Below are positions 19,108 through 62,471 of a DNA stretch of 64,000 bases, in pieces. Made by a program: the position numbers and the translations under genes. The notes under the pieces are model-generated. The model searched no databases. It was not told the origin of the DNA and was given only the letters and a program-made list of their open reading frames with translations. This stretch comes from Octopus vulgaris (taxonomy: Eukaryota), in NCBI GenBank assembly GCA_951406725.2, contig OX597830.1:40548001-40612000 (forward strand), written 5' to 3'. How positions within the stretch are numbered: position 1 is the stretch's first letter; each line of letters begins with the position of its first letter.

Positions 19108-19695
19108 CTGGTGGGTCTCACAGAGGCAATGACAGGAGACTGAGATCTTTGGAGATATGCTGTGATTGAGAAAACCCAGTAACTAAAGTGAGATCGCAGC
19201 CATGGCCAATGCCAATGTTGCATTGGGTGATATGATATGCTTGAGAAGACCTGTTGAGTCAAGTAAAACCAAAATCGTAGCTGTAGCCAGTGTCCCCTGA
19301 CTGGCTCCCATTCTGGTGACATGTAAAATGCATCATCTGAACATGGTCGATGTCAGTGTCCACTGACTGGCTCCCATGCCAGTGGCACATAAAAAGCACC
19401 ATCTGAACATGGTCAATGCCAGGTCCACCTGACTGGTTCCCATGCCAGTGGCATGTAAAAAGCATCATCCAAACATTGCTGATGCTAGTGCCTCCTGACT
19501 GACTCCCATTCCAGTGGTCGATGTTAGGTCCACCTGACTAGCTCCCATTCCAGTGGCACGTAAAAAACACCCACTACACTCTCAGAGTAGTTGGTGTTAG
19601 GAAGGGCATCCAGCTGTAGTAACATTGCCAGATCAGACTGAGCCTGGTGCAGCCACTGGCTCTCCAGACTTCAGTCATACTGCCCAACCCATGCT
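19108..19695 (+). mobile_element. Older RTE-LINE 3' end with tandem ~62-bp UTR modules
   Basis: GLTEAMTGD*DLWRYAVIEKTQ* matches the ORF end at 21180-21255; followed by repeated ctgactggctcccatgccagtggcacataaaaagcaccatc. Confidence 0.85.
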
Positions 19696-20740
19696 CAAAA
19701 TATCTGGTAGTGTCGGCTATAGCATAGTGACCCGTATAGTTAACCAGGTGATACACGAAAGAGCCATACCCAATGACTGGTGTAGCAGCATAATAGTCAA
19801 CTGCTACAAAGGTAAAGGTGACGCCCTAGATACAAATAACTACAGGGGTATCAAGCTGCTGGATCAAGTAATGAAGGTTACAGAGAGGGTTATAGCCCAA
19901 TTAATTAGAGAGAGAGTTAGCTTAGATGAGATGCAGTTTGGGTTCGTGCCAGGGAAAAGTAATACTGATACTATATTCCTGGTAAGACAGCTGCAGGAGA
20001 AATACCTAGCCAAAGATAAGCCCCTGTACCTGGCTTTTGTTGACATGGAGAAAGCCTTTGACAGGGTCCCCCGATCCCTTATCTGGTGGTCAATGAGGAA
20101 ACTAGGGATAGATGAATGGTTGGTGAGAGCTGTGCGAGCCATGTACAGAGACGCTGCTAGTAAGGTGAGGGTTGGCAACGAGTACAGTGAAGAATTCCGG
20201 GTAGAGGTTGGGGTCCACCAAGGTTCAGTCCTCAGTCCCCTCCTATTTATCATAGTCCTCCAGGCAATAACGGAGGAATTCAAGACAGGATGCCCCTGGG
20301 AGCTCCTCTATGCTGATGACCTTGCTCTAATTGCTGAGTCACTATCAGAACTGGAGGAGAAGTTTCAGGTGTGGAAACAAGGATTAGAATCGAAGGGCCT
20401 TAGAATCAACCTAGCCAAAACCAAAGTCCTAATAAGTAGGAAGGTGGACCAATCACAAACGACTTCAGGTAGGTGGCCCTGCTCGATCTGTAAAAAAGGT
20501 GTAGGTAGAAACTCTATAAGGTGCACCAAGTGTAAGCTATGGACACATAAGAGGTGCAGCAATGTCAAAGGAAGGCTAACTAGGAAAATAGTTTTTGTCT
20601 GTGGCAGATGCTCAGGAGCAATAAACACTGGAAATGTGCAGAGACCAACTTCTACCACGTTCCAGGGAGACAAACTAGAAGTAGTTGATAGCTTCCACTA
20701 CCTAGGTGACCAAGTCAGGGTGGGTGTGCTGAAAGTGTAA
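19691..20740 (+). pseudogene. Reverse transcriptase ORF (RTE clade), N-truncated and frameshifted near 20720
   Basis: NYRGIKLL, QFGFVPG, AFVDMEKAFDRVPR, GVHQGSVLSPLLF, YADD (20309-20320), INLAKTK, FHYLG. Confidence 0.95.
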
Positions 20741-21255
20741 CGGCTAGAGTAAGAATAGCCTGGGCAAAGTTTAGAGAGCTCTTACCCCTGCTGGTGACAA
20801 AAGGCCTCTCGCTCAGAGTAAAAGGCAGACTGTATGATGCATGTGTACGTACAGCCATGCTACATGGTAGTGAAGCATGGGCTGTGACTGCTGAGGATAT
20901 GCGTAAGCTCGCAAGAAATGAAGCCAGTATGCTCCGATGGATGTGTAATGTCAGTGTTCATAATCGACAGAGTGTAAGTACCTTGAGAGAAAAGTTGAAC
21001 CTAAGAAGCATCAGTTGTGGTGTGCAAGAGAGACGGCTGTGCTGGTATGGTCATGTGACGAGAATGGCTGAAGATAGTTGTGTGCAAAAGGGCTACACCC
21101 TAGCAGTTGAGGAAACCTGTGGAAGAGGTAGACCCAGGAAAACCTGGGACGAGGTGGTGAAGCACGACCTTCGAACTTTAGGTCTCACCAAGGAAATGAC
21201 TAGAGACCGAGACCTATGGAAGTATGCTGTGCATGTGAAGACCCGGCAAGACTAG
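20720..21255 (+). pseudogene. RTE ORF C-terminal continuation in a second frame
   Basis: ARVRIAWAKFRELLPLL..KGRLYDACVRTAMLHGSEAW..RLCWYGHVTRM..GRGRPRKTW..DRDLWK. Confidence 0.9.
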
Positions 21256-56259: not shown

Positions 56260-59035
<2,776 letters not shown>

Positions 59036-59329: not shown

Positions 59330-59628
59330 CAATGTCACATAAAAGCACCTATGCAGTGCCATGGAGAAGTGCCCATGTGGTGCCATGTAAAAATGTCCAT
59401 GCAGCACCATGTAAAAGCACCCAGCACACTGTGTAAAGTGGTTGGCATTAGGAAGGGCATCCAGCCTTAGAGACCATGCCAAATCAGACTGGAGTTTGGT
59501 GCAGTTTCCCACCTTGCCAGCTCTGGTCAAACCATCCAACTGATGCCAGTATGGACAATGGATATTAAATGATGATGATGACGACGACGACGATGATGAT
59601 GATGGTGATGATGATGACGATGATGATA
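59330..59628 (+). mobile_element. RTE-type 3' UTR fragment
   Basis: catgtaaaagcacccagcacact..ggaagggcatccagcc..(gat)n. Confidence 0.75.
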
Positions 59629-59997
59629 TTCTTTTATCATTTGTTTCAATCATTTGACTGTGACCATGCTGGAGCACTGCTTTGAAGGAAATTAATCAAA
59701 CAAATCAACTCAGAACTTATTCTTTTTTTTAACATACTTATCTATTGGTGTCTTCTGTCAGACTGTTAAGTTATGGAGACATAAACACAACAAAACCAGT
59801 TGTCAAGTGGTGATGGGGAAGGGTAAAACAGATAAAACAACATACACACACAGATATACACATATACATATATGGATGTGTGTGTGTGTGTGTGTGTGTA
59901 TAATAATAAAGGGTAAAAACCATTAATGATTTTTACCAGGTGGTCAGCACAGAAATAATACCTCATAGGTAAATTTTATAAATATTTTACAATTAAG

Positions 59998-60374
59998 TAC
60001 ATAATTATAACAAGGGCTTGGCTAGTGCTTCACCACACACTGAAAAATAGACGCTTAAGAGAAGGATAGGAATTCTACTTCGCAGCATATCTCTGCGAGT
60101 CTCAATGACACAGCTCGCTTACATATCCATGGTCACTCGTATATTTATGCCCGGAATACCGATGCTGATGAAGGTAATAGGCAATGTTTTTATTACTTTA
60201 AGCCCGAAACATGATCATGTACGTGGTTAACCAAAGTTTTAATTCATTTTCTTTCTTTTGCTAGCCTATTATGTAGTGTGTTATTCTCAGAGAATTTATG
60301 GTGGTAATAGTGTATTTTGGTATCTATTTTTCAGTGCGTGGTGAGGCACTAGCCAAGCCCTTGTTATAATTATG

Positions 60375-60376
<2 letters not shown>
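59998..60376 (+). mobile_element. 379-bp element with 54-bp terminal inverted repeats, PLE-like
   Basis: 59998-60051 and 60323-60376 are reverse complements with 2 mismatches; internal hammerhead motif. Confidence 0.75.
60158..60227 (+). ncRNA. Candidate type I hammerhead ribozyme
   Basis: accgatg-CTGATGA(60165-60171)..GAAA(60206-60209)-palindrome acatgatcatgt-GTA site(60219-60221)-cgtggt. Confidence 0.6.
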
Positions 60377-60434
<58 letters not shown>

Positions 60435-60437
<3 letters not shown>

Positions 60438-60632
60438 GGGAAGCTTTATGAAAATAGACAAAAGACAAAGGCAGGTTTACGGAAATAAACAAAAGACGAA
60501 GGCAGGTGGAATACAAACAAACAATTGTATTAGTATGGCGCTCAGGAAATATAAATAAAACAAGTCTTTAACGTTTCGAGCCTACGCTCTTAAACAGAAA
60601 GATACACAGAGAAGAAACACAGAAAGAAGGAG
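60435..60632 (-). mobile_element. PLE-like repeat with a degenerate minimal hammerhead motif
   Basis: Minus strand tcttt-CTGTTTA-A-gagc gtag gctc-GAAA-cg-TT-aaaga (60602-60565); relatives at about 10.95-11.15 kb and 23.0-23.13 kb. Confidence 0.55.
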
Positions 60633-61088: not shown

Positions 61089-61509
61089 CTGGTGGAGGTG
61101 TGTTCATGTAATATTGAAGATAAGGAGTGGGGGGTAATAATGTTTTATTTGTTATAAATTTATCAATTGCAACAATGTCGAATGAAACTTAGTAAATATT
61201 ATTGATTGGAGTAGGATGGTGCATCAGAGAGATAATGGAAATGATATGGGTACGAGGGAGTGGGCGGGGGTAGGAAGTGAGGAGGGGGGTGATGATGGGG
61301 CAGGAAGGGGGAGAAAGAATCATGGGGAGAGAGTGTTGGGGAGACAGGGAGGGGATGAAAGGGTGAGAGAGGTGAGGAGAGGAAGGAGTAGGTGAAAGGA
61401 GAAGAAGCATGTCTTAGGCATATGGGAGAGAGAAAGTCTAGAAGAAAAAGAGAAGAGAGAGAGAGCTAGAAAAGAATGTGAGATAAGGAAAAGTATAATA
61501 TCTATCCAT

Positions 61510-61569
<60 letters not shown>

Positions 61570-61798
61570 GTACCTATCTAGATATACATCATCATCACCA
61601 ACACCATCATCATTAAATGTCTGTTTTCCATGCTGGCATGGGTTGAACAGTTTGGCTGGGGTTGGTGATTCTAGTCATCTGTTTTGGCTTGGTTTCTATA
61701 GCTAAATGCCCTTCCTAATGCCAACCACATTACAGAGTGTACTGGTTGCTTTTCCTGTGATACCAGCACAGGTGCCTTTTACATGGCACCAGTATGGT

Positions 61799-61861
<63 letters not shown>

Positions 61862-61911
61862 GAAAGGGTGCTGAAAAGTTCCTGGCTTTGGGTAGAAGAA
61901 AATACAAGGAG

Positions 61912-62471
61912 ATGCTTGAGTTTGTTCAAAAGCTTAGCAGCACAGTCTTTCCTCTTGTCCTTGGTGGCTTGGGATAAAAATTGGCCCTTTATCATCTTGT
62001 ATCAGGTATACCGAATATCTTCATGTACTACCTGCCTGATAAGAAACTCAGACACTCCCATGTCCCTAGCGATGGACCTGATTGACTTGGAGGGATTATT
62101 GTCAATCATGGCTTGGATTTCAGGAGTTCTTTTCTTATCAGAATGATTAGAGAGAGTTTTCCAAGCTGCCGTACCTTCGTAATCACCATCAAACTCATCT
62201 AGCTCTTTCCGAATCTTCTGCACTGTCCTCAGATTCACACCCAATCACTTTAAAATGTTCGTATTGAAGTTTTCGGCATGAATACCAAGCAGTACAGCAT
62301 GTTGTTTCCAAATTTCTAGCAGAGTGAATTGCGTCATGGTGCTGTTTTTCTTGCAAACGGTGCCCAACTGACCCTACTATACTGTGTAATCAATAAAATC
62401 AAAAACAAACAAAGTGCATGCATGAAATATAAATATAAATATAAAATGGCAACAATTTACTCATCACACCT

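Follow-up and report, generated by a model that had tools for sequence, protein, structure and literature searches.

The inverted repeat at positions 59998..60376 of the window (the whole stretch of 64,000 nucleotides analyzed here, from Octopus vulgaris contig OX597830.1, positions 40,548,001 to 40,612,000 of the forward strand) provokes a question: what kind of element places a hammerhead ribozyme between mirror-image ends? An earlier note on this DNA had described a non-coding mobile unit, either derived from a Penelope-like element (PLE) or resembling a retrozyme, with 54-bp terminal inverted repeats and the architecture of a MITE. The first part of that description holds up well: the hammerhead belongs to an ORF-less ~525-nt family with the layout of PLE insertions. 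We consider it probable that the locus is one decayed insertion of this non-coding repeat, a copy that a Penelope-like reverse transcriptase-endonuclease working in trans likely made from RNA at a TA microsatellite.

We first consider the layout of the locus (Table 1). The two 54-bp arms match each other as described, but they are not terminal. The left arm reaches ~98 nt beyond its supposed end, continuing to 59900, and the inverted repeat is simply the stretch over which two pieces of one unit, placed head to head, coincide. The inverted piece carries an extension of ~90 nt that is absent from the other arm, and the forward piece has an 18-nt internal deletion and ends by running into (TA)n. 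A target-site duplication is unreadable at the locus, where both flanks are microsatellites; the window, part of a 2.8-Gb assembly, is rich in such repeats.

Table 1. Features of the hammerhead locus, in window coordinates.
Feature	Position	Strand	Detail
(TA)/(TG)n microsatellite, left flank	59860..59899	unassigned (.)	
Inverted 5'-truncated unit piece	59900..60053	-	unit positions ~465-525 then 1-97; 142/155 identical to family copy (92%)
Left half of the 54-bp "TIR", common to both pieces	59998..60051	-	52/54 nt match
Forward 5'-truncated unit piece	60056..60387 (end approximate)	+	unit positions ~186-525 plus ~10; 301/350 identical
Type I hammerhead, whole motif	60158..60227	+	stem I 60158-60164 with 60222-60227
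Hammerhead core	60165-60171 (CTGATGA) and 60206-60209 (GAAA)	+	exact letters in window
Hammerhead stem II	60172-60205	+	
Hammerhead stem III, 12-nt palindrome	60209-60220	+	predicted cut after 60221 (H17 = A60221)
Right half of the 54-bp "TIR"	60323..60376	+	52/54 nt match with 59998-60051
(TA)n microsatellite, right flank, likely insertion target	60381..60436	unassigned (.)	

Other copies pass the equivalent of 60376 and then continue into sequence found upstream of where the window's forward piece starts. They thus define a family unit of ~525 nt that closes head to tail (periods mostly 516–528); it has no ORF, and its GC content is 0.32–0.34 (<50%). The own-genome search gave at least 111 family matches from the best 40 of 628 candidates. 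In every family search the best 40 of 478–771 candidates were scored, which makes this a sampling and not a census. Pattern searches with the motif returned at least 16, at least 15 and at least 62 exact or near-exact matches, the gap range of the 15-match pattern excluding the commonest length. As later searches mostly returned sites already known, our guess is a family of a few hundred sites. Copies have diverged by 7–10% from the family majority; this divergence, together with a ribozyme core that is barely better kept within copies than its surroundings (see below), marks the family as old and decaying, judging from sequence. The circular-fold z-scores of two natural monomers were -5.2 and -1.8 (40 shuffles each), and four contig sets that we guessed to be RNA held scattered family pieces, mostly 80–95% alike. 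At site L002 (167–1213), a family copy adjoins a broken transposase frame, presumably of the Tc1/mariner type. The literature searched, which was without Repbase and most subscription journals, contained no description of this ~525-nt family; the supplements of hammerhead surveys may list it.

Does the head-to-head layout recur? We examined 98 distinct sites, 69 taken by BLAST rank, which favors long pieces, and 29 by pattern. Head-to-head inversions were present at 47 of them and absent from 51, and none had a tail-to-tail pair. Between inversions, the shorter inverted arm varied from 46 to 487 nt. Partial tandems, visible as same-strand runs of more than 540 nt, occurred at 28 of the 98 sites, and two same-strand hammerheads were seen at site L003. 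Two full units were found at none of the 98 sites, which are not a census; no run exceeded 1050 nt, the longest being 857 nt (~1.6 units).

The ends of the pieces proved informative. The 5' starts were evenly spread over the unit. The 159 3' ends were distributed between cluster A (67 ends; unit positions 1–45), cluster B (59 ends; 88–126) and positions elsewhere (33 ends). Clusters A and B lie ~155–200 nt and ~240–280 nt downstream of the predicted cut, respectively, ~85–95 nt apart. One A end was paired with one B end in 24 of the 27 inversions that had both ends clustered (p = 2.5e-5), a count that leaves out 20 of the 47 inversions for having an end outside the clusters and that uses cluster limits set after the end data had been seen. 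In the 29 later-fetched sites alone, this pairing held in 6 of 7 (p = 0.06). The window's locus is itself such a case, its inverted piece ending in B and its forward piece in A. In 21 of 28 inversions the two arms resembled each other more than unrelated copies did, and the non-majority letters common to both were about threefold more numerous than for unrelated copies (35 vs. 11.1; 34 vs. 13.5). A microsatellite touched 64 of 114 3' ends as against 242 of 1649 control spots (15%), an enrichment that is inflated, with end calls blurred by ~15–30 nt, because the unit has AT-repeat-like tracts where the two clusters lie. The cut site was read through in 60 of 62 anchored copies. The other two, without stem III, started at the cut or within 2 nt of it, against a roughly estimated expectation of ~0.6, a difference without significance. 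Pieces starting within ~10 nt of the cut numbered at most 6 of 79. The family accordingly displays the traits of PLE-type insertion: 5' truncation, a head-to-head inverted copy, a one-sided tail and a microsatellite target. Mirror-image ends of this sort are a known footprint of Penelope-type insertion.

How might two arms with different fixed ends arise? In vitro, a PLE enzyme uses two internal start sites for reverse transcription, whose spacing equals the tail, and uncut RNA is its main substrate, according to the part of that study used here (Frangieh et al., PMC11167929). We propose that the enzyme would nick both strands of an AT-rich target and that two cDNAs would begin on the same more-than-unit RNA (a tandem read-through transcript or a re-ligated circle), one at A and one at B. 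Both cDNAs would stop early and be joined head to head, leaving unequal inverted arms. The hammerhead of the source element, with its weak monomeric stem III, may have cut as a dimer to yield unit-length RNA; the RNA copied into DNA would mostly have been uncut or re-ligated. A bolder version is tentative and rather doubtful: circular RNA would have been the form in which the family spread, copied by twin priming at two fixed internal start sites with a spacing of ~90 nt (threefold the known tail length), and a ribozyme with a non-canonical 10.1–11.1 pair would have been selected through three subfamilies even though insertion uses uncut RNA. Were it true, selection would act at the circle-making step, and the family would give work on the origin of PLE inversions and tails a natural substrate. 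We found no account of twin priming in PLEs in the literature searched (without most subscription journals).

The same element could also owe its inverted arm to events on a single cDNA (fold-back, self-priming or template switching) or to a rearrangement at a later time. Self-priming has been proposed from junction palindromes, in the portion of PMC3846280 drawn on here, and the variants that the arms share fit any single-source origin, or gene conversion. Later rearrangement, however, predicts neither arms that end at two different fixed sites, as they do in nearly all of the inversions scored, nor the absence of tail-to-tail pairs, and we regard an origin of this general sort as unlikely.

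Insertion in trans also calls for an enzyme. This genome holds a large GIY-YIG PLE family (9695 candidates). At two PLE loci, L091 and L092, uninterrupted frames of 784 and 814 aa match RVT_1 and, just under the cut-off, GIY-YIG; both loci have an inverted 5' copy, a ~30-nt tail and a U3-A8-type hammerhead-like motif. The repeat's layout with an inverted 5' copy is therefore also that of an element with an intact RT and GIY-YIG ORF in the same genome, and a trans partner exists here in kind. As a direct parent, this abundant family was rejected: its hammerhead differs from that of the ~525-nt unit, and there is no significant DNA likeness between them (best E 0.01–0.12). PLE protein matches lay near family copies at 3 of 107 sites; these fragments were also rejected as parent, one being on the opposite strand and two being separated from the repeat by unrelated DNA.

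Alternatively, the copies could be stumps (pLTRs) of an autonomous PLE with ORF-bearing copies that are scarce, have been lost or escaped sampling, in which case the unit never spread alone. Most PLE insertions are indeed truncated at the 5' end and come with partial tandems and an inverted pLTR, in the part of PMC8557442 used here; the shortness of the longest same-strand run and the limited sampling described above would likewise suit this reading. Against it, copies that pass end B enter the unit's own start rather than an ORF, a PLE ORF was contiguous with the repeat at none of the 107 sites, and the arrangement that marks an autonomous PLE, an RT and GIY-YIG ORF between pLTRs, was seen at none of the sites examined; we judge the stump reading improbable. 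That a DNA-transposon derivative, a MITE with 54-bp TIRs, captured the hammerhead can be dismissed as next to impossible, for despite the near-perfect inverted repeat and the TA-rich flanks, there are neither fixed terminal inverted repeats nor a uniform length, the left arm overruns its "TIR", the arms are unequal and variable, about half of the sites have no inversion, and 5' truncation and partial tandems are alien to MITEs.

Is the hammerhead a property of the family? Two alignments were used: A1, with 40 of 51 hits (left out were L015, L028 and other deleted or truncated hammerheads), and A2, with 71 hits covering most of the motif, in two main subfamilies of 37 and 23 copies plus 11 others. 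The majority letters of the A2 subfamilies disagree in 22 of 97 columns but in 0 of the 12 core positions. Two-sided changes between subfamilies occur at pairs 1.2 (C-G/U-A) and 10.2 (G-C/A-U), and pair 1.5 appears as three pair types (C-G/U-G/A-U). The proposed pairs were paired in 86% of cells, compared with 24–42% when slid. Two-sided changes numbered 78 vs. 42 when counted by cell and 9 vs. 7.9 in shuffles (174/500) when counted by pair; by the latter figure, no more than a few subfamily events underlie the covariation signal. Within copies, conservation of the core exceeded that of other non-CpG columns only slightly (0.955 vs. 0.903, P = 0.018), and all core letters (C3-A9, G12-A15.1 and U16.1-H17, in type I order) were intact in only 39 of the 71. 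Sequence comparison leads us to regard the hammerhead motif as real. An unchanged core across subfamilies, combined with covariation in stems I and II, makes it likely that the ribozyme stayed functional in the source elements.

This call is carried by the family evidence. The bare core pattern turns up readily by chance (0.71 expected per shuffled window, against 2 in the window itself), and the motif alone therefore proves little. The scan for hammerhead models that had been suggested came back empty, with no Rfam match at E ≤ 10 in 60100–60300; in a wider scan, no hammerhead was among the 150 of 204 matches listed, which were mostly microRNA models on microsatellites.

The family's fold has peculiarities. 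Pair 10.1–11.1 is non-canonical, being A.C in 30 of 37 copies of the window's subfamily and G-U in 22 of 23 of the second; G-C is not the family pair. One stem III pair in the window's subfamily is a non-canonical C.A in 29 of 37. Stem II comprises a basal helix of 3–4 bp, an internal loop and a distal hairpin of 6–8 bp. For the window's subfamily, a register with an extra A and a G-C closing pair is possible, but 2–3 kcal/mol worse and less well paired, and we rejected it. For a typical copy, the predicted probabilities are 0.83–1.0 for stems I and II and, in the monomer, 0.01 for stem III (5–6 bp per half). This weakness fits dimer cleavage of the kind described in the portions used of PMC4209133 and a review (PMC6765202), in agreement with the earlier suggestion that stem III is suited to dimers.

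The window's copy itself has fared less well. Its exact core, the position of its cleavage triplet and a 6-bp bulged stem I are all as first reported, and "near-intact" is apt for the core letters, but the copy is predicted to misfold. Its 12-nt palindromic stem III is no family trait: a perfect palindrome occurs in 5 of 40 aligned copies and the window's own version in 2 of 40 rows, whereas the variant met most often (16 of 40) carries a C.A mismatch. Similarly, the stem II first proposed (aggtaata/tattactt) is the minimum-energy hairpin of this copy, but it is not in the family register, for it pairs A9 and leaves 6–7 nt unpaired before G12. Two stem II changes shift the register so that A9 is paired. 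The hammerhead fold is predicted to lie 6.6 kcal/mol above the minimum here, vs. 2.9 in three other copies. The predicted misfolding makes this copy a poor candidate for assay, and it is likely inert. We read the perfect palindrome and odd stem II as near-private decay, the palindrome likely deriving from CpG decay.

Comparison with known systems, made with the parts of the cited sources used here, places the repeat. As in metazoan non-LTR retrozymes (PMC7229834; 10.64898/2026.07.22.740005), an ORF-less, low-GC unit bears one type I hammerhead, is permuted head to tail and co-occurs with PLEs. Its ~525 nt falls inside the 51–972 bp range of Li, Clavereau and Pollet (2026), yet exceeds the 170–400 nt of the circRNAs of Cervera and De la Pena (2020). 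It departs further from that class in its 7–10% divergence, its enlarged two-part stem II and its lack, at the 98 sites, of two full units; Li et al. term "active" those with two or more complete units. EN+ PLE insertions (Craig et al., PMC8557442; PMC3846280; PMC11167929) likewise combine 5' truncation, partial tandems, an inverted 5'-truncated copy placed head to head, an extension at one end, (TA)n targets and a hammerhead upstream of two 3'-end sites. Unlike them, the unit has no ORF, and its extension is ~85–95 nt rather than the published 30–40. With the minimal and variant type I hammerheads of PLEs (Cervera and De la Pena 2014, PMC4209133) it shares type I topology, a large helix II, a palindromic helix III suited to dimers and motifs close together on opposite strands; in contrast, stem III is not minimal, and 10.1–11.1 is G-U, A.C, A.G or U.U by subfamily instead of G-C. 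On these sequence features we class the repeat as a non-autonomous PLE derivative resembling non-LTR retrozymes, an ordinary representative of a known class though a new family. It appears to behave as a non-LTR retrozyme inserted in PLE fashion, and belongs neither with MITEs nor with autonomous PLEs. The significance is modest, one old retrozyme-like family being added. However small, the locus illustrates that a PLE insertion may be mistaken for a MITE, and the pairing of A and B ends provides a fossil record that can be used to study the origin of Penelope inversions and tails.

Other repeats surround the locus. The same TA tract also contains a second repeat (60439–60620, minus strand), unrelated to the first, that is hammerhead-like and has a short stem II; its core-like motif starts from 60597, with G8 changed in the window copy. 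Similar motifs gave 10 further matches in the loci examined, a few being one site counted twice. At site L183, one of them shares its strand with a different GIY-YIG 3' end and is ~930 nt downstream of it, and this second repeat may therefore be the pLTR of that PLE. A patchy direct duplication (58032–58864 and 61375–62424, ~3.3–3.5 kb apart, some blocks 100% identical) flanks the hammerhead locus, and another repeat forms an inverted pair at 59413–59595 and 61587–61753 (70–86% alike, ~2.1 kb apart). Farther away, at 19601–21255 on the plus strand, long frames of 379 and 181 aa overlap each other and resemble an RTE-type LINE reverse transcriptase broken by a frameshift.
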